Notes: a model not told the origin generated them from the sequence alone. Counted from the first letter of the stretch, positions 340 through 51,271 are shown. The stretch is DNA of 56,411 nt from Coriobacteriales bacterium (GCA_017434185.1 JAFRFV010000050.1:1-56411); one strand, 5' to 3'. Program-made: numbers and translations.

Positions 340-403
340 GCGTCGCTCCCGCGCTTATCCTATACTCTGCGTATCCACGCTGCATCCAACGAACGGAGGC
401 ATC

Positions 404-1309
404 ATGAGCAAGAAGAAGTCCATCCTCGCGACCATCCTCATCGCCGGGCTGACGGCCGCCATGGCCCTGGCCCTTTCCGGCTGCTTCGGCGGCCACTCCG
501 GTGGCGGTGGCACAAGCGGCAACGATGATGACGGCGGTCTCTTTGGCAACGGCGGCGTCGTTGGTGACACCGGCGACAAGCCCGATGGCGGCGGCCTCTT
601 CGGTGGCGGCAAGAAGGATGATGGCATCTACACGCTCATCTATTACGAGGCATATGAGCATGAGGGCACCAGGTCCATCAGCTGGACCTACGATGAGCAC
701 GGCTCATGCCTGAACACCACTTGGAACGAAGCGGACGGCACGAGCCGCACCACCGGCAATCACGAGTTCGACGAATACGGCGCCTCCACCAACAAGGTGA
801 CCGATTACTTCGACAGGAACGGGAACCTGACCAGGAGTCGCGAATCGAGCGACGTCTACACCTACGACGCCGAAGGCCGCCTTATCCAGGATGACGAGGA
901 CGACGGCGTGAGCACCTACTACGAGTACTACCCCAACGGCGTCCTCAAGATGAGCACCAACAGTCAGGGTTACCAGAACGGCTTCGACGAGCAGGGCCGC
1001 AAGAACCTCTACGACGGCGGTTTCCTGAACCGTGATGGCCGCGGGGCACTCACCATCAGCTACGGTGGGGTGAAGAACAACGAAGGCAGCTTCACCGCCT
1101 CGTTCGCCAATGGCGAGTCCTACACCTTCACCTTCCAGACCGATAAGAACGGCAACATCGTCGCCGTGTTCGACCCCAACGGCAACCAGGTCATCCACGC
1201 CGAGTACACCTACATCGCCGATCCCTGCAGCACCGCCCGCACGTACAACTACACGCGCAACGGCACCTTCATCGTGATCGATGCGGTCGAGGCCTACCTG
1301 GGTGTCTAG
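404..1309 (+). CDS. Secreted lipoprotein with Gly-rich linker and YD-like beta repeats
   Basis: GGAGG RBS at 395-399 and ATG at 404. Basic N-terminus, hydrophobic stretch and lipobox LSG-C. Repeats include WTYDEHGS, EFDEYGA, YFDRNGNLT, YTYDAEGRLI and FQTDKNGNI. Confidence 0.75.
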   Translation: MSKKKSILATILIAGLTAAMALALSGCFGGHSGGGGTSGNDDDGGLFGNGGVVGDTGDKPDGGGLFGGGKKDDGIYTLIYYEAYEHEGTRSISWTYDEHGSCLNTTWNEADGTSRTTGNHEFDEYGASTNKVTDYFDRNGNLTRSRESSDVYTYDAEGRLIQDDEDDGVSTYYEYYPNGVLKMSTNSQGYQNGFDEQGRKNLYDGGFLNRDGRGALTISYGGVKNNEGSFTASFANGESYTFTFQTDKNGNIVAVFDPNGNQVIHAEYTYIADPCSTARTYNYTRNGTFIVIDAVEAYLGV

Positions 1310-1333
1310 CGCACGCTTGAGATAGGTTCAGCA

Positions 1334-2521
1334 ATGGATAAGCCCGTCGATACCCCGGCTCTCCCGGCGCCCCAGGCCCCCGCGCCCACGACCCCCACAG
1401 TGCAGCGCAAGTCCAACACCGGCACCTACGTGGTGCTGGGCTGCGTCGCCGCGCTCCTGGCGCTCTCGCTGCTGGGCAGCCTGCTCAACGTGGGTGACCA
1501 CCTTACCGCGGCACATCCGGCGCTGGGCTGGGTCTTCTACGGGCTCATCGCCGTGCTGGTGATCGTGGGCGTGGTGGTGCCCATGATCAAGATCGCCCGC
1601 CGCCCCATCTTCTCGCTCTACCAGCTCCACGACGAGCAGGGCCACGCCAAGCAGCGCTGGTGCCAGTTGCTCGCCGACAACCTGATCGCCAATGCCAACC
1701 TGAACGACCAGGAGGTGCTGGAGGTGCAGGCGGCGTTGCAGGCGGGTGACCAAGCCGACGACCAGCTGATCGAGCTCTTCAAGAGGCACTGCATCCCGCT
1801 GATCGACGACCAGACCAAGCACGCCGCGACCACGGCGTTCCTGATCGCGGCCATCTCGCGCTCGCCCCTCATCAGCACCGTCACGATGCTCTCCATCTGC
1901 TTCGACCTGGTGAGCGGCATCGTGCAATCCTGCGGATTCCGTCCCACCAACCTGGGTCTCGCGCGCCTGTACACACGTGTGATGATAAGCGCCCTCATCA
2001 TCGGTGGCATCGAGGACGCGGACCTGGGCGACCTGCTGGGTCAGCTCATGGGCGGCGGTGCCGGTGCGCGCGTGGGTGGCTTCTTCATCGGCGCGACCGC
2101 AGAGGGTCTGGTGAGCGCGTTCCTGGTCTTTCGCGTGGGCGTGATCTGCAAGAAGTGGCTCACCGCCACCGATGGCCCCGCGCGCATGAGCCAGCTGCGT
2201 CGCAGCAGCTATCGCGAGGCTCTCGCGCAGATGCGCACAAGCGGCTTCATGACTACCGTGGCCGAGACCGTGAAGGACACCGGCAGCTCCGTGGCGTCCA
2301 GCATGGCGAACTCGGTGGCGGGCGCAGCGCGCAATGCCGCCGAGCAGGTGCGCACGCAAGCGCACGCTCACGCGGAGTCCGCACGAGCGGTCTTCAGGTC
2401 CATGATGTCACGTGGAGAGCGCGCTGACCGCAGCGAAACGGGTGACGACGCGAGCGATACCCCAAACAAGCGCACGGCTTCCGACCGCGTGGTCGTGACG
2501 CCCGCAGGCGACGAGCGTTAA
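1334..2521 (+). CDS. YcjF/DUF697-family membrane protein
   Basis: Two N-terminal TM segments, then AISRSPLISTV...YGFRP-like 'SCGFRPTNLGLARLY' and 'AEGLVSAFLVFRVG' segments typical of DUF697. Confidence 0.65.
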   Translation: MDKPVDTPALPAPQAPAPTTPTVQRKSNTGTYVVLGCVAALLALSLLGSLLNVGDHLTAAHPALGWVFYGLIAVLVIVGVVVPMIKIARRPIFSLYQLHDEQGHAKQRWCQLLADNLIANANLNDQEVLEVQAALQAGDQADDQLIELFKRHCIPLIDDQTKHAATTAFLIAAISRSPLISTVTMLSICFDLVSGIVQSCGFRPTNLGLARLYTRVMISALIIGGIEDADLGDLLGQLMGGGAGARVGGFFIGATAEGLVSAFLVFRVGVICKKWLTATDGPARMSQLRRSSYREALAQMRTSGFMTTVAETVKDTGSSVASSMANSVAGAARNAAEQVRTQAHAHAESARAVFRSMMSRGERADRSETGDDASDTPNKRTASDRVVVTPAGDER

Positions 2522-3060
2522 CGCTCAAGCGAAGCCATCACCAGCGACAATACCATGGGCGCCCAAGCGGTGAAGCGCTCCGGTGCGCTCGCCAGCTGTG
2601 CTGCCAGCTCATTGACACCCACCCAGCGCAGCGCGGCGATCTCGCTGGGATCGGGCGCGAACGCGCCCTCGCAGCGGCCTACCAGCACATGATCGTACTC
2701 GTGCTCGCACATGCCATCCTCGAAGACGGCACGGTACACGAATGCGCTTATCTCCCGCAAGTCGATGGCGCTGCAGCCCAGCTCCTCGCGCACGCGCCGG
2801 TAGGCGGCGTCGATCACGGTCTCGCCCGCACGCGGATGTGAACAGCAGGAGTTCGCCCACAGACCGGCGGAATGGTACTTGCCTGCAGCGCGTTGCGAGA
2901 GAAGCAGCTCCGGACCATGCTCGCCATCGCGCAGCAGCTGTACGCTGAACGCACGATGCAGGAGGCCCTCCACGTGGGTACGCTGCTTGGTCGCCACTCC
3001 CAGCTGGCGGTCGAGTCCGTCAACCAGGATGAGCTCATCGTTTGCAGCATTGTCCATCAT
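2518..3060 (-). CDS. idi: Isopentenyl-diphosphate delta-isomerase, type 1 (Nudix fold)
   Basis: Motifs H..GLLHRAFS, QRAAGKYH, WANSCCSHP, REELG and EHEYDHV. Confidence 0.93.
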   Translation of the reverse strand: MMDNAANDELILVDGLDRQLGVATKQRTHVEGLLHRAFSVQLLRDGEHGPELLLSQRAAGKYHSAGLWANSCCSHPRAGETVIDAAYRRVREELGCSAIDLREISAFVYRAVFEDGMCEHEYDHVLVGRCEGAFAPDPSEIAALRWVGVNELAAQLASAPERFTAWAPMVLSLVMASLER

Positions 3061-3177
3061 CGTGTGGCCCCCATGTCCGTCGCGCTTATCACGAAACCGT
3101 ATCGCATCCTGCGTGGAATACGCGCATACGGCTATGATACGCTAGAACGACCAAGGTGGGAGATGAAAGGGGTCTCT

Positions 3178-4371: not shown

Positions 4372-5201
4372 CGCAGCGCATCCTGCTCGCAAACGCTCAT
4401 GCAGGCACCGCAGCGGATGCACTCGCTGTGGTTGGGTGACTTCGCGGGGTCGACGCCCATCTTGCAGGCACTGGCGCAGGCGCCGCAGCCCACGCATGCG
4501 TCCGCGTCGACCTCCATGCGCAGCAGCGCGAACCTGTTGAAGGGCGCGTAGAAGGCACCCAGCGGGCAGAGGGACTTGCAGAAGGGGCGGAAGATAAGCA
4601 CCGCCACCAGCAACAACGCCAGCAGCACCGCGAGCTTCCAGGCGAAGAGCCCGCCAGCGGCCTCACGCAGCGCGCCATCGTTGGCCATGAGAAACAAACC
4701 CGCGAGTGTTCCCGACGGACACAGGTACTCGCAGAACGTGGGCGTGAGCTTGATGCAGATGGGCAGCACGACCACCATCAGCAGCAACACCACGTACTTG
4801 AGCTTGCGCAACGCGGCGTCACCCTTGAACGGATGCGTGAGGCGTTCGCGCACGCGTCGCAGCGCGGTTGGCAGCGGGATGCGGTGCAGCAGGTCCTGCA
4901 GGAAGCCGAACGGGCACAGGAAGCCGCAGATCGCGCGCCCCAGCAGCGCTCCGAAGAACACGAGCAGGCCCAGCACGTAGTACGGTAGTTTGAAGCTCGC
5001 ACCGCCCAGCGTCGCCTGCAACGAACCGATGGGGCAGGCGCCCACCGCGCCCGGGCAGGAATAGCAGTTGAGTCCCGGCACGCACACGGCCTTGATCGGC
5101 CCTTGATAGATGCGGCCGGTGAGGAATCCCTTGAAATTGGCGTTCTGCAGCAGTACAGCGACCGACTGGATGCCGCAGCGGCAGCCTTCGCGCTTATCCA
5201 A
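4305..5201 (-). CDS. Membrane 4Fe-4S binding protein (NapH/RdxA-like polyferredoxin)
   Basis: CxxC-P motifs LNCYSCP, CGFLCPFG, CEYLCPSG and CKSLCPLG, plus two C-terminal CxxCxxCxxxC clusters. The TTG start at 5201 overlaps the upstream stop and is inferred. Confidence 0.85.
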   Translation of the reverse strand: MDKREGCRCGIQSVAVLLQNANFKGFLTGRIYQGPIKAVCVPGLNCYSCPGAVGACPIGSLQATLGGASFKLPYYVLGLLVFFGALLGRAICGFLCPFGFLQDLLHRIPLPTALRRVRERLTHPFKGDAALRKLKYVVLLLMVVVLPICIKLTPTFCEYLCPSGTLAGLFLMANDGALREAAGGLFAWKLAVLLALLLVAVLIFRPFCKSLCPLGAFYAPFNRFALLRMEVDADACVGCGACASACKMGVDPAKSPNHSECIRCGACMSVCEQDALRYCVSCSTSRSMSSSDMPPQRR

Positions 5202-5340: not shown

Positions 5341-5346
5341 GGCCTC

Positions 5347-5892
5347 CTACAGGTAGGGCTCGATGATGGATTCCCACTCCTTGTAGCTGTGCGAACCCAC
5401 GATCGGCTCGCTCAGCACGTTGCCGTCGCCATCCACCAGGAAGGACGTGGGCACGTAGCCGGTCTGGTACGCGTCGAAATCGCTCGTCACGACGATCACG
5501 GGATAGGTGGTCCCGCACTGGGCCATGATGGCGAGTGCGTCGTCCTTCTGCTTGACGGTCGAATAGGCACCGATGATCAGGAAACCCTGGTCCTTGTGGG
5601 CCTCGTACAGGCGCTCGAGGTCGGGCATCTCACCCACGCATGGCCCGCACCAGGGCTCCCACAGGTTGACCAATATGACGTTCGCGTCGCTGTAGTCCGC
5701 GAAGCTCACCTTCTGCCCGTCGATGGTGGTGGTCTGGAAGTCGAACCGCGCACTGGCACTGGGCGTTGGCGCGGGGGCTGGATCGGGGCCGTCCTCACCC
5801 TTGTGGCCGTTCCCACAACCCACGATGCAGGTCATGCAGATAAGCGCCGCGATCACTGCGGTCACTGCGGTGGTCCGGGTCTTCGTGCGCAT
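5347..5892 (-). CDS. TlpA-family thiol-disulfide oxidoreductase lipoprotein
   Basis: GAAGGAG RBS, lipobox IVG-C, active site NLWEPWCGPC and cis-Pro motif YVPTS. Confidence 0.88.
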   Translation of the reverse strand: MRTKTRTTAVTAVIAALICMTCIVGCGNGHKGEDGPDPAPAPTPSASARFDFQTTTIDGQKVSFADYSDANVILVNLWEPWCGPCVGEMPDLERLYEAHKDQGFLIIGAYSTVKQKDDALAIMAQCGTTYPVIVVTSDFDAYQTGYVPTSFLVDGDGNVLSEPIVGSHSYKEWESIIEPYL

Positions 5893-6075
5893 CTTCGCTC
5901 CTTCCACGTTCGTGGCGCAGCTCGATCGAGCCGCGGTGGAATCAGTATAGCCTTTGGCGCGGGAGTTGTCCTTGCATGCCCACGGAACGATGACATGACG
6001 TGGTTTTCGTGTAGCGACTTGCCTTGAACTGCGGTCGAGGCCCTATCATGTGTCCATTCAAGGGAAGGGAAGCCC

Positions 6076-7110
6076 ATGGACATGGATGAACTCACAAGAC
6101 GGCAGTTCCTGCAGCTGCTGGCCATCGCGGGTGGCACCGCCGCCGTGACGATGGCAACTGGATGCACGCGCTTATCACCTGAGGGCGCTGGCGAAGACGG
6201 CGCCGTGAACGACACGGACGACAGCGGCGATGCAACGACGCCGGATGCGGCGCCCGAGCCCGCCACCGAGCTGCTCGCATGCTTCATGCTGCTGAGCGAC
6301 ACACATATCACCCACGACAATCCCGTGCGTGCGGAGCGCCTTGCCGCGGCTCTCGAGCAGATCGACGCGTTCGACCCCCGGCCCGACGCCGTCATCGTGA
6401 ACGGCGACATCACCAATGGTTCGCGCGTGGTGGAATACGACCAGTTCTTCGAGGTCGCCAACGCCTCCGCTTTCGAATATGGCCGTGACCTGCTCACCAC
6501 CTGCGGCAATCACGACCAGCTGGCAAACAACGAGGGAAGCCAAGAGGAGTACGACTACGTGCGCGGCCTGTGGATGAGCAGGATGGACGTGCCCATGTAC
6601 TACGACCGCATGGTAGCCGGTCAGCACCTGATCCTGATGGGCCCGGACGGCATCGGGAGCTGGTGGGATCGCTTCAACATCACATCGGAGCAGGTGGCGT
6701 GGGTGGAGCGCCTGGTGGAGGCCGACGAGGCCGCGGGCATCAACTCGCTCATCTTCTGCCATGAACCGCTGCCAAGCACCGTGTACGGCACCGACGAAGG
6801 CCAATGGGGCTTTGGCGCGAGCATCGAGAACCCCGAGGAACTCGAGGCCATGCTCAGGCGCCATCCGCAGGTGGTGTTCATCACCGGGCACACGCACGTG
6901 GTGCCTGACGTGCGCCGTCGCAGTGATGCGGAACCCACGTACGTCAACGAGGGATCCTGCGGCTACAGCTACGACCCGCGTGGTGGGTTCAGACGCGAGA
7001 ACCCCCTGTCCAACGGCGTGGAGATGAAGGTCTACGCCGACCGCTACGAGTTCCGCTTCCGCGATTTCCTGGAGAAGACCTGGGGCAACGTCATCACCAT
7101 CAAGCACTGA
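6076..7110 (+). CDS. Tat-exported calcineurin-like metallophosphoesterase (probable lipoprotein)
   Basis: Tat motif TRRQFL and lipobox-like ATG-C. Metal motifs SDTH, NGDITN, GNHD, CHEP and TGHTH. Confidence 0.88.
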   Translation: MDMDELTRRQFLQLLAIAGGTAAVTMATGCTRLSPEGAGEDGAVNDTDDSGDATTPDAAPEPATELLACFMLLSDTHITHDNPVRAERLAAALEQIDAFDPRPDAVIVNGDITNGSRVVEYDQFFEVANASAFEYGRDLLTTCGNHDQLANNEGSQEEYDYVRGLWMSRMDVPMYYDRMVAGQHLILMGPDGIGSWWDRFNITSEQVAWVERLVEADEAAGINSLIFCHEPLPSTVYGTDEGQWGFGASIENPEELEAMLRRHPQVVFITGHTHVVPDVRRRSDAEPTYVNEGSCGYSYDPRGGFRRENPLSNGVEMKVYADRYEFRFRDFLEKTWGNVITIKH

Positions 7111-7749: not shown

Positions 7750-7850
7750 TCGCTTGGGGATAAGCGCCGCACTTCTCCAGTACATGCGCGGACGCCTTCT
7801 TGTTGTCCCTGAGTTCCTGCAGACCAGCAGCGTCGCTGTCGCACATCGCC

Positions 7851-16400: not shown

Positions 16401-17567
16401 TCAGATGCGCGTACGCGAACGACGCGCGGTCATGCTGATGCTGATAAGCGCGGCGCCAGCGAGCAGGGCAAGCGCTGCGATGGGCGCGGTATCGCCGGTC
16501 TTGGGGGTGCTGCCGTCCTCGGCGTCGCCGCTGCCACCATCGCCGTTGTCGTCGCCGTCGTCGTCGCCGTTGGGTGTGGGATCGGCGTTCTTCTCGTAGA
16601 TAGCGGTGTAGTCATGATCGCCTTCGACGACGAACTCCTCACCTGCTTGAAGCTGAGAGCCTTCCCAATACTTGAACGTGTGGCCGTCAAGCGTGGGGGC
16701 ACCGGGAGCCTTGATCGTCTCGCCCACGTTCGCATCGATGGTGATGCTGCCTCCGGTCTGGCTATCGAGCGTGCCCTCACCCAGGTTGAAGGTGAGCTTC
16801 GCTGGTGTCGTGGTCAGGTACTGGGTATCCGTGACCCTTCCAGACAAGCCGGATGAAGGGTAATCGGAAGACCGCGCCGTGATTACTGCCTCGAACTTAG
16901 CGTCGCCACTATGGATAATAACATCGTAGGGCACCGTATACGGGAAGTCGTGCGTCATGCTTCCGTCGGGAGCAAGAGTCTCGATAAGCCACGACGCTCC
17001 GGAAAGATGGTCGCTGATCAAGATGTCGTTCAAGTTGGCGAGCCCTACATTCTTGACGGTGACCTTCCAATTGATCGTCTCGCCGAATACATATTGGGGA
17101 CCATTACTGGGAGGGTTGGTGGCTTCGACGGTGACGTACAGAGGAGACGCTGGAAGAGTGTAGGATCTTGTGGCGGTGATCTCTTCGTCGGAGAATTCGT
17201 GAGTGGAAGCGGAGAACGTGAAGTCCTTCTCGATCGAACCGGCAAGCGCATCGTCTTGGGTCACAGTATGCGTGAGGGTGGCTGTCATCTTTTCTCCAGG
17301 GGCGAGGTGTGAAAACAACAGGGTTTTGTCACCCTCCTCGTCGGTGACTCCGATATTGACGAGTTCCTGGTAGTCTCCGCAGGTGAAATCCACCTCCCAC
17401 TTGATGACATCGCCAGGGACATAGGCGAAACCATGGAGAGGGTCATCAAGGGGACCCCTCATCTCGATTGTCATACAATCATCCAAGTCTTCGGCAAGAG
17501 CCGAACCTGGAAACAGCACCGCTGCCACCATCAGGCTCAGCAACGCGATGATGAGTCTCTTCTTCAT
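16401..17567 (-). CDS. Sortase-anchored surface protein with two Ig-like (DUF11/DUF7507-like) repeats and an InlB B-repeat-like domain
   Basis: Signal peptide; repeats 'YVPGDVIKWEVDFT..N..VTD' and 'YVFGETINWKVTVKNVG...ISD'; 'PTLDGHTFKYW...YTAIY'; TPKTGD, TM and basic tail. AGGAGG RBS. Confidence 0.85.
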   Translation of the reverse strand: MKKRLIIALLSLMVAAVLFPGSALAEDLDDCMTIEMRGPLDDPLHGFAYVPGDVIKWEVDFTCGDYQELVNIGVTDEEGDKTLLFSHLAPGEKMTATLTHTVTQDDALAGSIEKDFTFSASTHEFSDEEITATRSYTLPASPLYVTVEATNPPSNGPQYVFGETINWKVTVKNVGLANLNDILISDHLSGASWLIETLAPDGSMTHDFPYTVPYDVIIHSGDAKFEAVITARSSDYPSSGLSGRVTDTQYLTTTPAKLTFNLGEGTLDSQTGGSITIDANVGETIKAPGAPTLDGHTFKYWEGSQLQAGEEFVVEGDHDYTAIYEKNADPTPNGDDDGDDNGDGGSGDAEDGSTPKTGDTAPIAALALLAGAALISISMTARRSRTRI

Positions 17568-29600: not shown

Positions 29601-32600
29601 GCTGTCGAGCACGAGTACGGCCACGCACGGGGCAACACCCACCATGCCGATGGCACCGGCGGCACCCACCACGCGCACACTGCGTCCGTTGAACACGGCA
29701 CCGGCGTTGGCCAACTTGGTCTTGTCGGCGCTACCGGCCTCGAGCTGAGCCTTGTACTGGGCATTGCGGGCGGCTTCGTCGGAACCCTCCGGGGCGGCCA
29801 CATTGCTGCTACCGGTCCAAGAGGTCACTTTCACGTCACCCGTGGCACTGAGCCTGGATCCGCTCTCGACGTAGGCGACCGCGTTGGCGTGGGTCACGCC
29901 CACGGCGACGGTGGTGGAGACACCCACGATACCGCCGCTGGCGGTGAAGGCCATGAGGTCGAGCAGCAGCTCGCTCTTGGCATTGACGGTGATGTCATGC
30001 GCGGTCACCGTCGCGCCGCTTGCGATGTAGGCGCGGGCGGTATCGTCGCCGCTGATGACCGGGACATCGGCGCTGCCCAGGTTCGCGGCACTGCCGTCCT
30101 TATCCACCGCGTTGATGGCTGCGACGTTGCTGTCGACACCGGGATCGAGCACGTAGTAGGTCTTGTTCTTGAGCGTCTTGTCACTGGTGAGATGGAAGCT
30201 TCCGTCGCTGGCCTTCTCATAGTAGGTGGCAAGGTCGAGCTCGTCGGGATCCTCGACCGCGATCATGTCCTTGGCCTTGGGCGAGCAGTAGTAATACTTC
30301 TTGCCCGCAACGGGAGCGATGTCCGTGGTGTAGACGTACTTGCCATCCCTGAGCTCATAGAGGTTCTGATCCTTGGGATTGCTGCCGGGGGTGACCTCCA
30401 CGTAGTTGGGATCGCCCTGGAAGCCATTGCCGTCGACTGTGTCGACGTGCGATGTGCCATCGCCCTCGAAGATGCCCTCGAAGTCGGTGTCACCCAGCCT
30501 GGCGTTGACGCTCTTGCCAGCGGCAGTCTGCTTGCTGGCCTCGTCCGGGAAGAGGATGCCATTGAGGTCATCCCAGAAGTCGCCCGGCTTGAGATAGTGG
30601 TACTTCTCGTCGCTGTAGCAGTCATCCGTGTGCTTGTGGCCGTCCTTGCCGTCATCCTGGTATTCATCGCAGGTGAGGACCCTGTCCTCGGTCAGGATGG
30701 CGTCGGACGAATCCTGGTCGAGACCGCCACCCACCACGCTCACGAGCACGGTCACACCCACGCCCGCCTGACCGCCGGCGAGGGTGGCCAGGTACATCTG
30801 GATGTCACGCAGGCCGGTGGCATCCACCGTCACGTCACCGCTGCAGGTGACGGCGGCGTCCTTGCCGATGTAGGCCTCGATGCTGTTGTTGGACACGCTC
30901 ACGATGGCGGTCACGCCCACGCCCGCCTGACCGGCGATGGCGGCGGTGCCGGCGATGCCCAGCAGCGTGTAGCTGTCCTTGGCGAGCACGGACAGGCTGG
31001 CCGCGGTGACCGTGCACTTGGCGCCCGCCTCGTCACTGTCCGCGATGAAGGCCTTGGTCGTGACACCGGTCACAACGACGGCGATGGTACCGGAGACGCT
31101 CGCGCTACCGGAGCCGGTGATGCCCAGCACATCGGCGTCGATACGTTCGATGGAATTGGCGTTGATGGTCACGCCGCCAGCAGCGACGATGGCGGCACCT
31201 GCCACGGCCTTCGCCGTGGGAGTGGCGTTGAAGTAGGTGACGGCCACGATGCCGGAGACGCTCGCGGAACCGGAGGCGCCCACGGCGCCGGCGGCGTTGA
31301 TCAGGTGGCTGTCGTTCAGAGCGGCCACGATCACATCACCGGAAGCCTGGACGCTGCCGCCCAGCTCCGCGGTGGTGCTGTCTTCGAAGTAGAGCACGGT
31401 CGCGCCGGCGCCCACGGCGGTGCCACCGGCGGAGATGCTCACGCTGAAGATGTAGAGATCATCGGTAGCGGCGGTGGATTCATCCAGATTGTTGGTGATG
31501 CCATAGGGGCTGCGCTTATCGCCCGCGATCACCTGGACGTCGTGCGCATGCACTTCGCCCGCCCGATAGGCGTTCACGCTGGCGACGATGTCCTTGTTGT
31601 AGGTCAGGACGGTGACGCTGGCGCCCACGCCCACGCTACCGGCGGCACTCAGCGAGCCGGAGACCAGATAGATGTCGGAATCAGACGAGGCGAAGGTCTG
31701 TAGGTCACCCTCCGAATCGTCGTTGGAATCCGCGTCTATGCGCCCGCCTCCGTAGATGATCGCATGTACGGTGTTGTTGAAGACGCCCGTGTTCACCACG
31801 CCCGCGACGCCCGCGTTACCACCGGCGGCGCCGGCCACGGCCACGCCCACGAAGGTCTCGTTGGAGGTCGCGGAGACGATCACGCCCTTGCGCTTACCGG
31901 TCCTGACGGGAACGGTCAAGCCCGCGCCGCCACCTCCGGCGGCCACGACCGCACCATAGCCGATCAGGGCGAGCACGTCGTTGTCCACGACGGTGGTGAG
32001 CACGACCGCACCCACGCCAGCCTTGCCGCCGCCGGCGAAGCCACCGGCTGCGACGTACATCTTGGTGTCGTAGTCCGCGATGACGCCCACGGAGCCCTTG
32101 GTGGCGGTGATCGCGGTATTGGCGGCATCGTTGGTATCCGCCTCACCGATGATGGCGGCCACGCGGTTGGTGGAGACGATCACCGGGATGGTGCCATCCA
32201 CGGCAGCGGTACCACTGGCGGCGCCACCCACTGCCACGATGACCGAGTAGTCCTTGGCCTTGGCGAACAGGAGCACGTCGCCCAGATCCGCGGTGAGCTT
32301 GGCGCCCTTATCCACACGGGCGACGACGTCGCGGTCGAAGACGAACACGTTCACGACGGCGCCCACGGCCACGTTGCCGGAACCGGTCAGGGCGGTGGAG
32401 ACGGCCACCATGAAGGTCTCGGACTCGGCGGCCACGCTGATGTCGTTCTTGGCGGTCACGATGGCGTTCTTGCCGATGCTCGCCAGTGTCTGGGAGCGGG
32501 TGACGTCGACGTTGATGACGGCGGCCTCGCCCACCTGAGTGCTGGCGGAGATGGAGCCGAGCACGTTCACGAGGAATTCCTCGGAGTTGGCTTCCACACG

Positions 32601-35600
32601 CACGGAGCCGTTGCTGGAGCTGATAAGCGCGGCATCACCGATGCTCGCGATGGTCTTGGTCTTCTGGACGAGCACCTGGATGGTGCCACCCACGCCAACC
32701 TGCTCGCTCGCACCGATGGAGAGTGCGATGGGCAGGAGCTTGGCGTCATCCTGCGCATAGACGATCACGTCGTCGGTCGCATCGACGGTCACGCCCTTGG
32801 CGATCCTGGCGATGTAGGAGTTGTCGGTCACGATGACCGGGATGACCGCGCCCACGCCCACGTTGCCGGTGGAGCTGACACCCGGGGCGATGGCGATCAC
32901 CAGCACGTTGGAGCTCTCATAGGGAATCTCATCCACGCTGGGAGCGTCCACCAGATTGCCGTCCTCGTCGTAGACCTTGCCCCAGGACTTGTCGGGCTGC
33001 GAGCCATGCGCGGTGACGGACACGCCGCCGCCCGCGTTGATGACGCTGTATGCGGAGGCGCTGTCGCTGCCCACGGCGGCAGTGGTGGAGCCGTTGTCCA
33101 CGTAGACGTTCACGCTGGCGCCCACACCCACCGTAGCCTGTGAGATGGAGAAGGAACCGGTGATCATGCGCGCGTTGGTACCGCTGGCAGCCTGCACGGT
33201 CATGTCGTCGTCGAGGTCGATGCGGCAGCCGTCACCGATGCTGGCCTCGATCGTGTTGTTGGCGAACACGAAGGCGAAGCTACCGGCAACACTCGCCACG
33301 CTCTGGCCGGCAGCCGTCTGGACGGCGCCGGCGATGGCCTCGGTGTAGTAGTTGGTGGAGGACAGGAAATTGAGCAGGTCGATGGCACCCAGGATAGTGT
33401 CGGTGTCGATGTTGATGTCCACCTTGTAGGTGGTGGTGTTGCCATCCTGCACGGGCTGGACGGTGAGGATGGCCTGATCCTTGGCCTGGGTGATGTTCTG
33501 GTCGGGAACGGCGGCCTTCTTCACAGCGGGCTTGAGGTCGATCAGGTAGGACCAGTCCTTGCCGATCGCGTAGTCACTGAAGGTGACGATGGCCTTCTCG
33601 GCATCCACGGACAGGCTCTTGCCCAGCAGCTGCACGCCGTCTTCCACGACAGCCTTGACGATGTCGTTGCCGTAGATGAGGGCGAAGGAGGCGCCCACAC
33701 CCACCGTGGAGCCACCGGAACCGGAGAGGGCACCGGCGCGCACGGCGAGCTTGCTCTTGTCGTAGGCCTTGACGGTGATGTCGCCGCCGGTCACGACGCT
33801 GTTCTTCGCGATCTTCGCAACGCTGTCGCTGTTGGACACCAGAACGGAGATGGCACCCGCTACCGTGGCGGTGGAGCCGGCACCGGAGGCGGCACCGGCG
33901 ATGGTCTGGGCACCCAGCAGACCGGCGAAGACGCCGTCCATGTTCTGGGTGTAGGTGACGACCACGTTCACGTCACCGCCGTTGGCGTTGGCGTCGCCAT
34001 CGATGGTCGCGTAGGTTTTGTTGCTGTTCACGCCCACGGCAACAGCGGCGCCCACGGTTGCCATGCTGGCATCGCCCGTCGCGGCGACACCGGTGGCGTA
34101 GGCGCGGTAGTTGGCGTTGTTGGTGGCGAGCACATCGAAGCCACCGGCCACGAGCGTGCCGGAGAGCTTGGCTTCGGCCTTGTGGTCGGTGATGTTCACG
34201 GCCAGAGCGGCGGCGAACTGCACGCTCTTGCTGCTGGAATCAGCGGCGGTCGTGCCTTCGGGGGCGGTGCTCGCGTTGGGGTTGCTCGCGGCATCGGGGA
34301 TGTCGGTCTTGCTGGTGTTGGTAGAAACGGCCGCGGTGCCCTCGCTGGTGGGAGGCTTCTCCTCGGTCTTCACGTTCTGGGTCTTCATGACGTTGCTGGA
34401 GAACGCGGCGCCCGGATCGGACTTGGGCTTCTCGGTCTCGGTGCTGCCATCCGCATGCTGGTTGGTGTTGGCGTTCTTATCAAGCTTCTCGTCGGCCTTG
34501 TCCTTGGTGGCGTTGTCGCCCTTCTTCGCGTTGGGATTGCTCGTGGGCGCGTTGGGGGTGCCCAGGTTGTTGACCCAATCCTCGAAGCTCATGATGCCGC
34601 TGGCGAACTTGCTGAAGTAGCGGGTCAGGTCCGCGCCCATGGCGGTGGCGGTGCCCACGGCCTCGTCTTCGGTGTGGGTCCTGGCATCCAGGTGGACGGT
34701 GCCGGCGGCGGTACCGTTGCCCTTGAAGGTGGCGGTGTTGTCACTCGCGGGGATGTTCACGGCCACGGCGGCGCCCACGGCGGTGGATTCACCGCACGCG
34801 CAGCCGGAGGCCTTGGCAAGGGTCGTGCCCTTGGTCTTGGAGTAGATGGCCACGCTGTAGTAGTCGTCGCCCACCTTGACGGGGTCGGTGGTCCACTGCG
34901 GCGTCGCATCCTCGTCATCGGGATCCTTGATGATGCTGGCGCCGGTCGCATCGAGCGTGCTGTTGCTCTCGAAGGTGGCGGCGGCAACGGAATCGATGAT
35001 GTTCAGGGCGAGGGACGCATCAAGGGAGAAGCCCTTCTTGTTGGTCTCGGGATCCTCGAGCGGGTCGGTACCGGCGACGCTGTAGGTTTCCGCGTCGTAG
35101 TCGGAGATGGCATGCACGTCCAAGCCGCCCACTTCGACCTTGCGGTTCTCGTCGACCTTGGCGGTGGTGTTGACATCGGCGACCACCAGAGCGAATGCGG
35201 CGCCCACACCCACGCCCTTGTTCTTATCCGCATCGGAGGGAGCAGCGCTGCTGCTTCCGCCCACGCCCGTGCTGCTCGAGCTTGAACTGCCGTTCGTGCT
35301 GGTGGCTGTGGTGGTGCTGGCATCCGCCTTACCCGCGGCGTCCGCGTTCTTATCCGGTGCGCTTCCGTCGCCGGTGACGGCGGCGGTGGCAACGGTATCG
35401 AAGGCCTCGGAGCTCTGGGCGGCAACGGTCAGAACGCCATCCACGTGGATGTCTTGTCCGAGAGCGGCACCCTCATGCTTGACGATGGTGGCGGTGGTGT
35501 CGCCGTCGACCACTGCGATGGACACGCTGCCCGCGACGCCCACATCGGAGGCGCCGGCGCCGGCAACGGACCAGGTGGTGAAGGTGCTCGAGGAGACGCT

Positions 35601-38600: not shown

Positions 38601-41600
38601 CTTGTCGCTGTCGCGGTTGGCCTTCCAGGCGATGTTGGCCTTGATGCCGGAGACCATGTCGATGGTGACGTTCTCGATGGTCGTGGTGCCACCGCTGATG
38701 ATCCAGGAGGCATCGTTGCCGCGGCTCACGGTACCGCCCGCGTTCACGAAGCTCGAGCCGCTATCGGGCTGGATGTTGATCGTGGAGCCCTTGGGGATGT
38801 ACTCGCCGCCGTAGATCTCGATCACGAGGAAGCCATCCTTGTTGAGCTTGTCGATGTCGGTGGACTGCACCGTGGTGGAGAGGCTCGCCTGCTCGGGAAC
38901 CTTGGGATTGCTGGTGGAGCTCACGGCCTTGGTCTTGGTGAGGGTCGTGGCATCCGCCAGGGTGACCGCGATGGTGGTCGCGCTGGAATCCAGAACGACG
39001 TCCGCGTCGCTGTTGATGACGCCGCTGCTGTCGATGTGGGCATCAGCCGAGTTGGTGATCACGGTGATGGCCGCGGCGCCCACCGCGTGGATGGTGGAGC
39101 CGGTGGCCTCGGTGGTCTGGTTCTCAGGATTCTGGGCGTTGGGGTCCTGGCTCTGGTTGTCGCCACTGGAGGAGTTCTCATTGTTGTTCTTCTCGGGCGT
39201 GCTGGAGCTGGTGGCAGTGTCGAAGACCTTGGTGGCGGACTTGTTGTTGTTCTCGTTGCCGCCGGAATCGCCGGAGCCGTCCTCGCCCTCCTGGGACTCC
39301 TGCTTGTCCACGGAATCCTTGGCGATGTCGAAGCCGCCCTGGATCTTGTTGCCGTTGGCATCCTTGGGCTTGATGGTGGTCATGACGGAGCTCATGATCG
39401 CCGGAGCCAGCTTGGTCATCTGGGCGACGGTGAAGTTCTTGATCTTGGTGTTGGCGTCCACGGTGGTCGAAGCGCTGGGCTTGGCGGGGATGGCCTTGCC
39501 CGTGGTCTTGACGCTCGCGCTTGCCTGGGCGCGCACATCGCCGCCGGCGGCGATGTTGGTGTCGCCGGTGATGCGGGCGTTGGCCTCGTGCACCGCGACG
39601 TTGATGACGAAGAAGCCACCGGACTCATACGCCGACTCGCCCTTCTTGGTGAGCGAAGCCTGGCCACTCTGGGTGAGGCTGCTGCTGGCCTTGGCGGCCA
39701 TCGTGCCACCGGTGACGATGGTGGAGTCGTTGATGTCGATGTCGGTGTAGCTCACCGTCACGTCCAGAGCCAGCGAGACCGGAACGAGGCCGGTGTTGGA
39801 AGCCGTGAGTTGCTGGATGGAGGTGTTGGCCTTCATGATCAAGCTGCCATCCGTCTGGATCCTGGCGCCGTCGAGGGTGATGTGGTTGTCCATGACGGCC
39901 ACCGCGATCGCGACCGGCAGGGTGACCATCGTCGCATCGCAGGCGATGGTGATGGTGCCATTGGAGAGCATCTGGATGCCCGCGCCGGCGAAGATGCTGC
40001 CGTAGACGTCGATGCTCGAGTAACCCACCTTGACGGTGACGAAGTTGATCTGCGGGATGGGGAGCATGCCGTGGATCTGCTCGGACTTGGCCTCGATGGA
40101 GACGAATTCGCTCGCGTCGATGACGGCATCCGTCTCGATGGTCACGTTGCCGTCGCAGACGAAGTTGAAGCAGGAGAGGTCGAGGTTCAGGTCGTCCTGA
40201 CCTTCGACCACCGCGCTCACGGGGATGGGGATGACGAAGTTGGTGTCGTCATCGAAGCCGCGCAGGATGATGTTCCTGGCGTAGATGCCCATCGCCTGGC
40301 GCTTATCCTCCGGAACACCGGCGCTCTCCGCCTTCTGCAGAGCGGTGCGGACCGTGGTGGCCTCGGCGGCGTTGGCGCGATCCACGCCGTCGTCGAAGTC
40401 GGCGTAGGCGTCGGGCAGGTTGTCCTGCGTGTAGACGTAGCGACCCACGTGGATGGTGGTCGCCTGGTCGATCACGTTGAGCTGGGGAGCATAGACGTAG
40501 TAGATGTCCTTGATCTCCAGGCGCAGGCTGGCGAGGAACGGGTTGGAGTCATCGGTGAAGATCGCGGCGATGACCGTGTTGCCCGTGGTGGAGATGATGT
40601 AGTCGGTGAAGCTCTCGAGTGCACCGGCGTAGACGATGGTCCCGGAGGCGTTGCCGTTCTTGCCAAGCTCGAGCTCCTTGGACTTCTTGCCCTTGAGATC
40701 GTCGGTATAGGCCTCGATATCGTTGAAGTTGAGGATAAGCGCGTTGTGGACGACGCTGTTGCTGCCCTCGGCGGTCGTGGGCTTGTTGGGCTCGAGGACG
40801 AGGCGGGTGGCATCGCCGGAGATGCCGTAGGCGTTCTTGTCCTTGTCGCTGTAGATGCTGCCGGTCAGGTGGACGCGGTCAGCACCCTCGCCGCCATCGA
40901 CGATGAAGTCGTCGGTGTTGGTGGCGACGTACTGCAGCCCGCTGTCCAGGGTGATGAGGTCGTCGCCGGCGCCACCGTGGATCTCGATGCAGTTGGAAGC
41001 GGTTCCGCTCTTGGCGGAGCTCTTGACCGTGATGCTGTCGTTACCGGCGTCGCCGTAGAACTCGAAGTCGCTGGCCTGGGTCTTGGTGCCAAGGCTCAGG
41101 GTGATCGTGTCGTCGCCGGCGCCGCCGTTGACGGTCGCGATCTGCTGCTTGGCCTTGCTCTCGCTGGCCTCCTTGTAGCTGATGTCGACATTGTCGTCAC
41201 CCGCGCCCAGGTTGATGTCCGACTTGTGCACGTCGGTGAGGGTGATGACCACACTGTCGTTGCCGGAGGTGCCGTTGAAGGCGAAGGACGGGGCGTCGGT
41301 CACATCGATCTTGGTGGTGGACGACGCCGCGCCGCTGTAGACGGCGTCGACGCTGTTCTTGGATCCGCCGGAGAAGAAGAGGCCGGAGATCTCGGTCGTC
41401 AGCTCCTTGATGGTGAAGGACGCCGTCACGTTGGCGCCCACGCCACCCTGGGCGAGCGCGTCGTCGGTCGCGCTGACCACACTGGAGGAGCGGATGATGA
41501 TGGTGAAGTTGTCCTTACCGACGAAGGGGTTGAAGGCGGAGCTCGTCTCGCTGCCGTCGGGGTTCTTGGTGACCACCTTGGGCTCGATCAGGACGGTGCC

Positions 41601-44998: not shown

Positions 44999-45121
44999 GC
45001 CGTCGCGCATCATCACCCCGGGGGAATCGACGTTTGGAACCATCTGCGATTATACGCGATGCCCCTTCATGGGGATACGGTCGCACGGTCGACCGGAGTG
45101 GCAGGCGAGAGCCCGTGCGAA

Positions 45122-45925: not shown

Positions 45926-46539
45926 GATGCGCCTCCCTTCGAATACACGCGCTGCCAGTGATCGATGATCCTCTCGAAATCAGCCTCGATCACATCGGGA
46001 TCGATGGCCTCGGCCAGGTTCTTCTGGAACATGTATCCATCGGACAGGAGCACGAACTGACGGTACAGCTCGTCGATGCTCACGTCGTCACGCAACGACG
46101 ACGTGTCGACAAGGCGCGAGACCAGCTCCTCTCCCCTGTTGGCGTATGCATCGACGGCGCGATGGATGGCATCGCGCACAATGGGGTCCTGCTCGTAGTA
46201 GGCGCGGATGGCGAAACCGAAGGAGTACGGATGCTCGCGCATGACGGCACATTTGGCGTGGGTGGTGCGACGTAGCATCTCGAAGAAATCGTTGGTCGCA
46301 AGAACGCCGTGATCCTGGGTGGCGCGTGCGGTCTGCTGTGCCGCGACGTCCCACAGGTACAGGTAGAGCTCCCGCTTGTTCTTGAAGTAATGGAACAGCA
46401 GGGATTTGGAGATAAGCGCCTCGTCCGCAATCAACTGCATGGACGCGTGCTTGTAGTCGCTCCTGGAGAACACTTTGAACGCTGCGTTCAGTATGTCTCG
46501 CTGGCGCGCAGGCGGCAGCGCGAAGAACCTCTCGTTCAC
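45922..46539 (-). CDS. TetR/AcrR-family transcriptional regulator
   Basis: HTH AFKVFSRSDYKHASMQLIADEALISKSLLFHYFKNK. GTG 46539 follows GGAGGGG. Confidence 0.92.
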   Translation of the reverse strand: MNERFFALPPARQRDILNAAFKVFSRSDYKHASMQLIADEALISKSLLFHYFKNKRELYLYLWDVAAQQTARATQDHGVLATNDFFEMLRRTTHAKCAVMREHPYSFGFAIRAYYEQDPIVRDAIHRAVDAYANRGEELVSRLVDTSSLRDDVSIDELYRQFVLLSDGYMFQKNLAEAIDPDVIEADFERIIDHWQRVYSKGGAS

Positions 46540-46560
46540 CGGACCCCTCCCCTTGGTGGC

Positions 46561-46603
46561 CATTGACCGAAGCGGTCAATGACCATGCTATCGCCATTGA
46601 CCG
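46561..46603. promoter_or_regulatory. Probable TetR operator: palindrome CATTGACCG-AAG-CGGTCAATG plus an extra half-site
   Basis: A perfect 9-bp inverted repeat at 46561-46581 and a third CATTGACCG at 46595-46603, just upstream of tetR. Confidence 0.72.
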
Positions 46604-46648
46604 TTCGTGGGAAGGGGTCTGTGGCTCCGGGTCGAAGCGCTGCGATGA

Positions 46649-47419: not shown

Positions 47420-47441
47420 GTGTCCCCCGTTCATGCAGCAT

Positions 47442-47474
47442 GGAACAACCCCATCCACGTGATGGGGTTGTTCC
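47442..47474. other. 14-bp perfect inverted repeat between the flavodoxin and EFR1 genes
   Basis: GGAACAACCCCATC-CACGT-GATGGGGTTGTTCC. Confidence 0.6.
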
Positions 47475-47492
47475 GGATTGTATCATGACCCG

Positions 47493-48206: not shown

Positions 48207-48287
48207 GATGCTTCCTCCTCGGTTGTCTCTTCATACGTGCTGTGTATAGTTTAGTCGGAAGAGACGCTCCTGTCTGCGCGTCAGCGC

Positions 48288-49007: not shown

Positions 49008-49239
49008 TTCCTTATCCTCTCTATCGTAGCTTGATTTGAGTCACACGACCAAGCAAGCACCGTGCGGTGCATCTTCGTGTGTTCTTCGATTGCCTGACAG
49101 CCTGGCTGTCAGTCGCTACAGAGCAAGGACCAAAAAGACATCCCCTTGAAGGTCTCCTGCGGGGAACCATCTCCCCGAATGACGGCATCATATCACGTTC
49201 GGCGCAGTTCGAGAGCGCTCCCGTGTTATGATTGTGCCA

Positions 49240-49350
49240 TCGGAGATGAAAACACGACCCCGTTGGGTAGTCGGGGTGCGCCGGCCGGCGTCAGTAACCT
49301 GCCTCCTTGGTTGTCCCTTCTCCGCGTGGTGACTTACATAAAGGAGGGCA
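49240..49350 (+). ncRNA. yjdF-class riboswitch (azaaromatic-sensing motif)
   Basis: Contains GAAAACAC, GTTGGGTAG and GTCAGTAACCTGCC segments that I recognise as yjdF-motif hallmarks. It lies between an extended -10 (TGTTATGAT, 49224-49232) and a yjdF gene. Boundaries are approximate. Confidence 0.7.
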
Positions 49351-49355
49351 TCGCC

Positions 49356-49781: not shown

Positions 49782-49906
49782 GCTTCGAACGGAGCAGTGA
49801 CAAAGAGCGGGCGCACTATCGTTGGAGGACCAAGTGCGGTAGTATGCAGACAAGAAGCGTGGCGCGGTCGTATGATCGAGCGCTGGAGTGAGAACCGGGA
49901 GGCACC

Positions 49907-50089
49907 ATGGAGATAAGTGAAAGCGGCTTTTTCATTCTCGAAGAGGATGAGCTGGAGCCATGGGAGTGCGAGGGTCTTCTCCTGTGCGATCCGGACGAAG
50001 ACGAAGACGAAGCCCCTGCTCCCCGCAGGATGGAAGAACCGGATCCGTGGGCGATGTACACGTTCTGTGAGGAGAGCGATTTCCTCTAG
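49907..50089 (+). CDS. 60-aa highly acidic hypothetical protein
   Basis: GGAGG RBS 4 nt before the ATG and TATGAT at 49871-49876. No family recognised. Confidence 0.45.
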   Translation: MEISESGFFILEEDELEPWECEGLLLCDPDEDEDEAPAPRRMEEPDPWAMYTFCEESDFL

Positions 50090-50146
50090 AACGGCTGACC
50101 CTTTTGGCGAGCGCGAACGAGCGTGCTCTCAGCTGAGGCGAGTCGC

Positions 50147-51271
50147 TCAGTTCTCGGGAGGGAAGACGAGGCCCATCGGCGTCTTCTTGGTGCTGAAGGC
50201 GTAGTCCGGCACCTTGCGCGCTTCGGTCCAATCGTCCGGGGCATCCGGCGCGACCCTCTGGTGAACCGTCTTGTAGCCCACCTGCTTCCTCTCCCTCACC
50301 TGCGCCTTCGCACCGTTGATGGCCTGTGCGAGCTGACCCCGCACGGGGTAGATGAGCTCCGGCTGATTCATCGCCAGGGATATGAGCTTCTGTGCCGACT
50401 CCTTCCAGCGCACGCATGTCCTCTCATGCCTGGCACGCGCGTCGCGCAGCGGGTCCGGCTTGCCTTCAAGGCCGCTCAGGTCGCAGCGGAGTCTATCGGT
50501 ATGCACCACCTGATAGACGTCGTACGCATAGGGGCGCAGGGCTTCGATGCACAGACAGCAGCCGAGGACTTCACGCGCTCGGGTGAAGTGGAGTTCGCCG
50601 TCCTTATCCGCCTGCTTCTTGTATCTATTGATGTAGTTGCGTTGGCCCTTGGGGTCTTTGGGCAACGCGGTTTCCAATTCGCGCATGACCGGGGAGTGCC
50701 ATCCAATCACGGTCTCGAAAGACGCCTTGGCGGAGTTGTTGGAGTTCATCGCATAGTTCCAGCCGGCCACGCACTGCTCGATAAGCGCCGAGGCCTTCGC
50801 CTTGTCCCCGTATGCCTTGTAGGCCGCGCGTCCCACCGATTCCAATATGCGCTCGTATCCGTCGATGTCACGGAAGAACTTCCCGTCGCGCTTCCGGTGG
50901 TCGACTATCGCGCACGTGATGTTGATGAGTTTCTCGAGATTGGGCTTCTCGACCTTGCCCAGCAGGGGCACGAGCAGCCTGGCGTTGTACGCGTTCGCGA
51001 AGCACTCGGCGACCGACATGAGCAGGTCGTCGCGGCCGGACAGACGATCGAGCAGTTGGCATGCGACATCGCAATCGCTGGCCTTGGCAATCTCCGCCAA
51101 CGTGTCCTTGCTGCTGATCCTGTCGCATGCCGCCAAGCGGATCTTGGCGAAGTGCGCGCTCGTCGCGATGGTCTCGAGCTTGGCGGGATCGGCCTCCTTC
51201 TGCACTGCCGCGATGGCCTTGGGGATCTTCTCCTCCTTGTCGGTCTTCCAGATCGGGTCGAACAGTCCCAT
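50147..51271 (-). CDS. Hypothetical protein with N-terminal HEAT-like helical repeats
   Basis: 374-aa ORF. The N-terminus has L..IA......IR.AA..RI repeats. Confidence 0.65.
   Translation of the reverse strand: MGLFDPIWKTDKEEKIPKAIAAVQKEADPAKLETIATSAHFAKIRLAACDRISSKDTLAEIAKASDCDVACQLLDRLSGRDDLLMSVAECFANAYNARLLVPLLGKVEKPNLEKLINITCAIVDHRKRDGKFFRDIDGYERILESVGRAAYKAYGDKAKASALIEQCVAGWNYAMNSNNSAKASFETVIGWHSPVMRELETALPKDPKGQRNYINRYKKQADKDGELHFTRAREVLGCCLCIEALRPYAYDVYQVVHTDRLRCDLSGLEGKPDPLRDARARHERTCVRWKESAQKLISLAMNQPELIYPVRGQLAQAINGAKAQVRERKQVGYKTVHQRVAPDAPDDWTEARKVPDYAFSTKKTPMGLVFPPEN

Follow-up and report, generated by a model that had tools for sequence, protein, structure and literature searches.

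Why does one nine-letter word, GATAAGCGC, occur sixteen times in the 56,411-nt stretch of Coriobacteriales DNA analysed here (GCA_017434185.1 JAFRFV010000050.1:1-56411; the window, contig C39 of its genome), and what might read it? An earlier note on this DNA had listed the sixteen copies and about eight near-matches and had proposed a selected signal at the DNA level, such as an uptake sequence, a methylation or recombination motif or the site of a nucleoid protein. All sixteen copies lie where the note had placed them, nine forward and seven reverse, with none in addition, and the near-matches beginning with GATAAGC are present as well (Table 1); in 100 dinucleotide-preserving shuffles the window contained 0.33 copies on average (sd 0.62, maximum 4), and none of the shuffles reached 16. 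The window belongs to a metagenome-assembled genome (MAG; G000) of an uncultured gut bacterium of the Coriobacteriia, a fragmented draft of 1.99 Mb in 268 contigs with 62% GC and 93% completeness, whose RecA falls within the Coriobacteriia, with the best named matches (75-80%) in uncultured MAGs of the Eggerthellaceae, Eggerthellales and Coriobacteriaceae. We favour, tentatively and with considerable reservation, the view that GATAAGCGC may be the core of a species-specific tag of self-DNA, of the type of the DNA uptake sequences (DUS) and uptake signal sequences (USS) of other bacteria, kept up by biased uptake and recombination.

The abundance of the word is a property of the whole genome, as a genome-wide count, suggested as a check by the earlier note, confirmed. 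With 704 copies (348 forward, 356 reverse) GATAAGCGC is more frequent than any other 9-mer; the runner-up among unrelated 9-mers, GC-rich and codon-like, reaches 315. Markov models of order 1 to 3 predict 13 to 23 copies, and those of orders 6 and 7, which predict 602 to 676, approach the observed count because the word dominates its own sub-words. The 30 9-mers with the greatest excess over the order-3 model are all pieces of the same motif, except for one near the bottom of the list. The real motif is longer than the 9-mer first noticed and degenerate, approximately nGGGGATAAGCGCnnC or nGGGGATAAG-nnC-nnC, with a near-invariant 6-bp GATAAG core and graded flanks: in aligned copies the three preceding positions are G in 66%, 57% and 67% of cases, and the third position 3' of the 9-mer is C in 66%. 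The GATAAG hexamer occurs 1740 times, followed by CGC in 701 cases, GGC in 147, CCC in 128, GAC in 108 and AAC in 75, and the variants carry the same GGG on their 5' side and the same C at the third position after the 9-mer. GATAAGnnC was found 1509 times (211 expected), whereas other GATAAGnnN words are depleted (230 versus 475 expected), and the near-variants are themselves 6 to 12 times enriched; one exact word is thus present per 2.8 kb and one GATAAGnnC per 1.3 kb. The 12-mer context GGGGATAAGCGC has 173 copies, whereas 12-mers with a single change in the GATAAG part have 0 to 10, those with a change in the GGG part 8 to 75 and those with a change in the CGC part 0 to 34; together with the flank consensus, these counts define a motif with an invariant core and graded flanks. 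The 10-mer GGATAAGCGC is present 469 times and, read backwards, once.

The word arises at the DNA level and independently of codon usage. Among the 1701 genes called by our own heuristic (simple open reading frames (ORFs) plus a codon score; 88% of the genome), we counted 420 copies (60% of the total), compared with 48.5 ± 6.0 (maximum 63) after a protein-preserving shuffle of synonymous codons within genes and 100 ± 8 (maximum 121) after a stricter shuffle that also keeps the dinucleotides at codon junctions. The enrichment thus survives the codon-shuffle null that the earlier note had called for. The spelling GATAAGCGC is used for 139 of the 160 Asp-Lys-Arg tripeptides, even though only 38% of Asp codons are GAT, and GCGCTTATC for 149 of the 497 Ala-Leu-Ile tripeptides, even though CTT makes up 7% of Leu codons; the two tripeptides are themselves 1.5 to 2 times over-represented relative to amino-acid frequencies. 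The rare codons CTT, TTA and ATA are forced by the word, and 16% of all TTA codons of the genome fall within it, all of which bears out the proposal of a DNA-level signal rather than a by-product of protein sequence or codon usage. The statement that the word ignores reading frame stands in part: all five stop-free frames are in use (139, 39, 149, 47 and 46 copies), but the two cheapest of them account for 69% of the coding copies, and the frame that reads TAA is absent inside genes. Within the window our own gene calls come close to the earlier tally, with three copies outside genes as claimed, but eight rather than seven encoding Ala-Leu-Ile and two rather than three encoding Asp-Lys-Arg; the three copies in other frames comprise one with ATA, one with TTA and one in an Ala-Tyr frame, compared with the three copies forcing rare codons (ATA twice, TTA once) of the earlier tally.

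Comparison with homologous genes indicates how the word came to lie where it does. Homologues were taken from samples of ten other Coriobacteriales genomes and from the recA-flanking loci of Coriobacteriia MAGs (L001-L013), and they gave 62 alignments that cover 51 coding sites. The word is free of gaps in 57 of the alignments (92%), which indicates that it spread by substitution and not by insertion as a unit. Residue identity at the codons of the word is 0.48, compared with 0.54 for whole alignments, and typical pairs are DKR versus QRR, DNR or DGR, ALI versus VLI, KLI or ELI, and RLS versus SLT or RLA; ordinary codons have thus been overwritten by the word, in many cases with a change of amino acid. 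Its distribution among relatives, a comparison that the earlier note had recommended, is narrow: forty genomes of this order contain 0 to 11 copies of the 10-mer GGATAAGCGC, GATAAG occurs at the level of chance and lacks a flank consensus in 10 of 10 sampled relatives, and the inverted-pair pattern described below gave only isolated chance matches when 185,579 species genomes and metagenome contigs from JGI were scanned. In all, about 50 other Coriobacteriales genomes lack the word, as, by these scans, do the two public collections. We had considered a GATAAGC core shared with relatives (G009 was compared) and rejected it in view of the chance-level counts of GATAAG. RecA sequences form one cluster at 99% identity, with the next drop to 83%, and strain assemblies from NCBI (GCA_017431545.1), ENA and JGI samples that are 92.4-99.9% identical to the MAG keep seven of seven distinct exact sites within their aligned parts; the one strain polymorphism concerns a variant site (GATAAGAAC versus GACAAGAAC). 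The retention of sites in independent strain assemblies shows that the word is real and predates strain divergence, and as far as public data reach it is limited to one species-level lineage. By the names of the records, the bacterium and these strains probably come from the ruminant gut.

Copies outside genes are over-represented. There are 254 intergenic copies and 30 that straddle gene edges, which places 36-40% of all copies in 12% of the genome, at a density of about 1.06 per kb in intergenic DNA versus 0.24 per kb in genes (about 4.4-fold). Counts in 5-kb bins are Poisson-like (mean 1.61, variance 1.75). Density falls from 0.33 per kb in the genes with the weakest codon bias to 0.13 per kb in those with the strongest, and it is 0.36-0.39 per kb in GC-rich windows compared with 0.18 per kb in the least GC-rich ones, which is opposite to the prediction from base composition. 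Gene ends are used in several ways: the TAA of the word is the stop codon of 25 genes, TAG directly followed by GGGATAAGCGC or TAA directly followed by GGGGATAAGCGC is found in 20 genes, and in 19 genes a reverse copy abuts or overlaps the stop codon. In addition, there are 19 close inverted pairs of the form GGGATAAGCGC-loop-GCGCTTATCCC, many of them directly after stop codons.

The earlier note had seen no strand skew in the window and had argued from this against a polar site of the Chi or KOPS (FtsK-orienting polar sequence) type, which holds genome-wide. Chi sites are co-oriented with replication to about 75% in E. coli, and KOPS and the related SRS (SpoIIIE recognition sequences) to more than 85% toward dif. 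An attempt to derive replication polarity from GC skew failed: throughout the genome, third codon positions on the sense strand are strongly enriched in C (GC3 skew -0.20), so that local skew in this draft tracks transcription and not replication. When the leading strand is approximated by the majority gene strand, to which 80% of coding bases on long contigs belong, the word is oriented 58:42, and orientations are mixed within single contigs (16:13 on C133, 9:7 in the window). So weak a polarity excludes a KOPS-type role and argues against a Chi-type one.

The genome encodes a set of genes with which DNA could be taken up. An intact pair of adjacent comEA (SLBB and HHH_3 domains) and comEC (Competence and Lactamase_B domains) is followed by an ORF of 325 aa that resembles holA (DNA polymerase III delta) by eye only, and both dprA and a cinA-recA-recX locus are present. 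One gene cluster of the Tad/Flp type encodes two ATPases (ParA-like and CpaF-type), two T2SSF proteins, a weakly matching TadE-like protein, a protein of 765 aa and two small Flp-like pilins (68 and 72 aa), in which a G/xxxxEY processing motif was recognized by eye. The CpaF-like protein of this cluster is the sole T2SSE ATPase, and no ATPase of the PilB or PilT type was found in the genome (no search for ComP was made). Natural transformation of the actinobacterium Micrococcus luteus needs this very gene set, Tad/Flp, comEA-comEC and dprA (PMC4322843). From the excess of the word, its independence of codon usage, its origin by substitution, its even, two-stranded scatter, its restriction to one lineage and the presence of these genes we tentatively infer that DNA uptake is the process that reads it. 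Double-stranded DNA bearing the word would then be preferred by a DNA receptor on the cell surface, for which the Tad/Flp pilus, supplying ComEA and ComEC, would be the most plausible home; among fragments from conspecific cells, those with more copies of the word, or better ones, would enter and recombine, via DprA and RecA, at a higher rate; and point mutations that create the word would become fixed more often than those that destroy it. Such a drive would write the word wherever protein or regulatory constraint permits, that is at synonymous and near-synonymous positions, at gene ends including the TAA stop codon, and in intergenic DNA.

To our knowledge, only two families, both proteobacterial, are documented to take up DNA in a sequence-specific manner. 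The Neisseriaceae use the DUS GCCGTCTGAA, its 12-mer form AT-DUS and dialects thereof, which are bound by the minor type IV pilin ComP. The Pasteurellaceae use the USS, with a 9-bp core (AAGTGCGGT or ACAAGCGGT) and AT-rich flanks. For the comparison we relied on published descriptions of both (10.1101/2025.10.24.684340, PMC2346458, PMC2397512), and in most respects the signature seen here matches that of a DUS, namely in abundance, use of both strands, override of codon usage, accumulation by substitution, bias in frame and toward gene ends, intergenic excess, hairpin pairs behind genes, graded motif and restriction to a lineage. Like the DUS, the word is a non-palindromic sequence of 9-12 nt with weaker flanks, present in hundreds of copies on both strands, in preferred frames within genes and denser between them, with inverted pairs forming hairpins behind genes, specific to its lineage and housed in a genome with uptake genes. 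Unlike the DUS, it has a monoderm actinobacterial host with a Tad/Flp cluster and without a PilB/PilT-type ATPase, its density is lower, hairpins contain only a minority of its copies, the surroundings of recA are not enriched in it, and no dialects were found in neighbouring genera; GGGGATAAGCGC shares no similarity with GCCGTCTGAA or its described dialects, which by our reading of PMC3630211 have a CTG core in common. With the USS it has in common a 9-bp core, graded flanks, a mostly genic location (60% here), an excess at gene ends, a frame bias and accumulation by point substitution at permissive, less conserved protein positions, but the cores are unrelated, the flanks are G/C-rich (GGG … nnC) instead of AT-tracts, and phylum and envelope differ. 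The word is therefore a member of neither the DUS nor the USS family, being of unrelated sequence, from another phylum and without a type IVa pilus.

Among the other systems, M. luteus is close in equipment, and we know of no uptake sequence reported for it. It is likewise an actinobacterium with a Tad/Flp cluster, comEA-comEC and dprA, the sole transformation machinery described for the phylum (PMC4322843), and differs from the present case, known from genome sequence alone, in that a candidate sequence tag exists here. The cyanobacterial highly iterated palindrome HIP1 (GCGATCGC) is also a hyper-abundant short word that overrides codon usage and spread by substitution, and its function, long debated, was recently linked to horizontal transfer (PMC13756078); HIP1, however, is palindromic, read by cognate methyltransferases and phylum-wide, whereas the word described here is no palindrome and is confined to one species, in whose genome no methyltransferase was found. 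Chi, KOPS and SRS are over-represented oligomers as well, read by DNA-processing motors, but they are strongly co-oriented with replication. Repetitive extragenic palindromes (REP) and REPINs, finally, are intergenic imperfect palindromes of 20-40 nt that flank a single REP-associated tyrosine transposase (RAYT) gene and spread as units, whereas the word is mostly genic and bears no signature of insertion.

Several observations weigh against uptake as the reader. The ComEA, ComEC, DprA and Tad families also match our control genomes, which are those of bacteria not known to transform, so that the gene set indicates capacity and not activity; no candidate for a sequence-specific receptor was identified in the genome; and we know of no report of natural transformation in the Coriobacteriia. 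Neisseria DUS are enriched in genome-maintenance genes. Here, a region of 27 kb (C228:2865-29869) that contains dapB, rnj, ftsK, a miaB-like gene, cinA, recA, recX and rny is free of copies where about 9.5 would be expected. A second copy-free gap, of 18 kb, is found at C186:22253-40470. About half of all DUS and USS copies, and most inverted pairs of the DUS, are located in terminators (10.1101/2025.10.24.684340); in the present genome an inverted partner exists for only about 16-22% of intergenic copies, most copies being single, and the predicted folding energy around intergenic copies equals that of controls (-16.9 versus -16.5 kcal/mol). Moreover, a bias of 57-58% in orientation relative to neighbouring genes, present in intergenic DNA too, is weak but real and would not be predicted by simple uptake, and no dialects of the word were seen in the nearest relatives, from which it is simply absent.

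The word might instead be the site of an intracellular DNA-handling protein, kept by selection at each single site, be it a weakly polar Chi-like signal for recombination or repair, the target of a chromosome-organizing (nucleoid) protein or a site of self-marking for a nuclease; we consider this rather unlikely. Any sequence-specific binder could account for the origin by substitution, for sites conserved between strains and for a 6-bp core that is invariant within graded flanks, and the 58:42 bias relative to gene direction and presumed leading strand, again also intergenic, would suit such a protein, as would the predominance of single, unstructured copies, which is expected of a site on double-stranded DNA; the skew of a different abundant word in another genome (see below) hints that some abundant words of this order are polar. 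Yet selection at 700-1500 sites, at the cost of rare codons and amino-acid changes, would be hard to sustain without a drive, the polarity stays below that of Chi and KOPS, and recognition proteins of this kind are conserved, yet no relative has the word; as far as we know, the established nucleoid, segregation and occlusion sites are counted in tens and not in hundreds. A biased process of mutation, repair or gene conversion, of which the word would be a product without a reader, as has been proposed for HIP1 and for the Vsr/Dcm-shaped words of E. coli, appears clearly improbable. It would explain the substitutions, the spread into all permissive frames, the enrichment of near-variants and the density gradient opposite to base composition, but a non-palindromic specificity of about 12-16 bp goes far beyond known short-patch repair contexts, and the word occurs in no relative. 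In addition, the 93%-complete MAG contains no match to Vsr (PF03852) or to the methyltransferase families PF00145, PF02384, PF01555 and PF02086, which cover the C5, N6, N4/N6 and D12 classes; this weakens readings driven by methylation or repair, and with them the methylation option of the earlier note.

Spread as a mobile miniature repeat, either REP/REPIN or a miniature inverted-repeat transposable element, moved by a RAYT, is largely refuted and very improbable. The genome does encode a single RAYT-like Y1 transposase (C49:9848-10597; 249 aa; Pfam Y1_Tnp, 58.6 bits) that scores 79.1 bits against the NCBIfam model of REP-associated tyrosine transposases (cut-off 80) and has no DnaA-C-like domain in Pfam at E ≤ 1, one exact and one degenerate copy of the word adjoin its gene, and there are the 19 close inverted pairs. 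The gene is flanked, however, by inverted copies (C49:9585-10700) of a separate repeat of about 50 nt, ATGTGGAAAGGGGACGTGTTTCCTTCCACATTTGTGTAGAAAGGGACAGGTCTC, which includes GGGGACGTGTTTCCTTCCACATTTGTGTAGAAAGGGACAGGTC and has a GGGACGT core; of its roughly 25 copies most are intergenic, and many form inverted pairs. Gene and repeat form a classical REPIN/RAYT arrangement, which accounts for the transposase. The 9-mer is not a REP element, as it is mostly genic (60%), unstructured, born by substitution (92% of alignments at the 51 coding sites lack an insertion) and only occasionally near the repeat (about 4-6 of 25-34 REP-like elements); most of its copies are single and no more structured than controls. 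An artefact of composition, codon usage or assembly, finally, is refuted and hardly conceivable: the high-order Markov expectation, the only figure in its favour, comes near the observed count only since the word dominates its sub-words, whereas the low-order models, the shuffles of window and genes, the single backwards copy of the 10-mer and the recurrence of the same sites in independent NCBI, ENA and JGI assemblies all contradict it. Of the options raised by the earlier note, one of the uptake-sequence type fits best.

Some other short words were noticed in the course of this work. On the reverse strand the core reads TTATCC and recalls a DnaA box (TGTGGATAA, 53 copies versus 4.2 expected), a reading that we rejected: the CACA half is not conserved, no cluster of boxes was found, and nearly all TGTGGATAA copies continue as GATAAGnnC and are thus flank variants of the same word. 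In G001, a genome of the same family, TGGTTCCCGGTACC occurs in tandem-like clusters with a spacing of 15-35 nt, mostly at contig ends, and a single RAYT-like gene is present (G001:C1:242-568). We had considered TGGTTCCCGGTACC as a dialect of the word but rejected this because of the clustering at contig ends, which marks a different phenomenon; the arrays look like repeat arrays of the REP/BIME (bacterial interspersed mosaic element) type or clt-like ones rather than a dispersed tag. A dispersed word, GGGTTTCTCGGCA, is found in G007, a genome of the same order but another family (f6; L179-L183), where TTCTCGGCA reaches 38 copies per 100 kb versus 1.3 expected (29-fold) in all five samples, with orientations of 5:2, 2:5, 1:6, 1:6 and 4:6 that may indicate replication polarity. 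The same word gives a faint signal in G002 (TTTCTCGGCA, 8 copies in 100 kb), and seven other sampled genomes have no word comparable to that of G007. The presence of different abundant words in other Coriobacteriales suggests a phenomenon that is recurrent but sporadic in the order. The recA locus of a gammaproteobacterial MAG (L078; 21 kb) contains 15 copies of the 9-mer CCCATGCCG, far more than the other loci of comparable GC content, and this may be another abundant word.

Within the window (Table 1), 41 GATAAG hexamers were counted, of which six do not conform to GATAAGnnC, and 19 variant sites with the same invariant core span positions 1142 to 50611. The giant ORF at 17607-42311(-), which would encode a protein of 8,234 aa, holds five exact copies, a density typical of coding DNA. 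An azaaromatic (yjdF) riboswitch aptamer is predicted at 49236-49334 (+; Rfam RF01764, 67.1 bits, gathering score 45). The tract 51300-56411 is a candidate mobile island that encodes a tyrosine integrase (52323-53561) and an AbiEii toxin (54172-54993); this end of the window has no copy in 5.6 kb, versus 2 expected, which is not significant. Only four tyrosine recombinases were found in the genome, two of about 310 aa that are probably XerC and XerD, the one in the window and one fragment. The binned genome appears nearly free of restriction-modification systems and mobile elements, which may be real or an effect of binning.

Table 1. Copies of the word and related features; positions refer to the window unless a contig or locus is named
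Feature	Position	Strand	Context
Exact copy (+ strand reads GCGCTTATC)	351..359	-	gene 2-1309(+), Ala-Tyr frame
Exact copy	1984..1992	+	gene 1334-2521(+), frame with rare Ile codon ATA; kept in strains L144, L149
Exact copy	2744..2752	-	between called genes; kept in strains L144, L149
Exact copy	3082..3090	-	gene 2872-4371(+), Ala-Leu-Ile
Exact copy	5190..5198	-	outside own gene calls
Exact copy	5839..5847	+	gene 5347-5907(-), Ala-Leu-Ile
Exact copy	6168..6176	-	gene 6076-7110(+), frame with rare Leu codon TTA
Exact copy, full GGGG flank	7759..7767	+	convergent intergenic gap 7750-7850; kept in strain L146 (97.5% identity)
Exact copy	16443..16451	+	gene 16401-17567(-), Ala-Leu-Ile
Exact copy	21072..21080	+	8234-aa gene 17607-42311(-), Ala-Leu-Ile
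Exact copy	31512..31520	-	giant gene 17607-42311(-), Asp-Lys-Arg
Exact copy	32622..32630	+	giant gene 17607-42311(-), Ala-Leu-Ile
Exact copy	40299..40307	-	giant gene 17607-42311(-), Asp-Lys-Arg
Exact copy	40734..40742	+	giant gene 17607-42311(-), Ala-Leu-Ile
Exact copy	46411..46419	+	TetR-family gene 45922-46563(-), Ala-Leu-Ile; kept in strains L147 (94.7%), L148 (92.4%)
Exact copy	50780..50788	+	gene 50147-51271(-), Ala-Leu-Ile
Variant GATAAGnnC, starts	1142, 1337, 4593, 11701, 16218, 25320, 48819	+	
Variant GATAAGnnC, starts of CTTATC (9-mer starts 3 nt earlier)	10912, 19038, 22227, 24798, 30099, 32307, 34476, 35223, 35349, 37587, 45272, 50603	-	
Near-match GATAAGC, starts	1337, 4593, 11701, 14304, 16983, 48819	+	
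Near-match GATAAGC, starts of CTTATC	10912, 24798	-	
Further copies of the ~50-nt repeat	contigs C45, C58, C94, C106, C112, C120, C133, C239, C245, C248, C252, C253, C266		
TGGTTCCCGGTACC clusters of G001	L117:2494-3440; L120:11-40, 2425-2500; L127:4921-5010; L135:4242-4435		

In the literature that we searched, we found no uptake tag for the Actinomycetota and no mention of the word as a genomic motif, and a survey of 2025 still confines uptake sequences to the Neisseriaceae and Pasteurellaceae (10.1101/2025.10.24.684340). If the word is a self-DNA tag, it could represent a third independently evolved uptake sequence system, and the first in a monoderm and in the Actinomycetota, in which a Tad/Flp machine would read GGGGATAAGCGC on double-stranded DNA and restrict transformation to the bacterium's own species, a proposal that we regard as possible but hold even more loosely than the tag itself. 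These anaerobes would then be naturally competent, and the tag, rather than restriction-modification, of which none was detected, would be their barrier to foreign DNA. Should a process other than uptake turn out to read the word, the process that wrote a 12-16-bp word about 1,500 times by point substitution would be unexplained itself and worth finding. Confirmed uptake would mean that transformation with self-recognition evolved more than once and with different pili, that uncultured Coriobacteriia are naturally transformable, which would open a route to genetic tools, and that gene flow and species borders in metagenomes could be followed by means of a simple tag.

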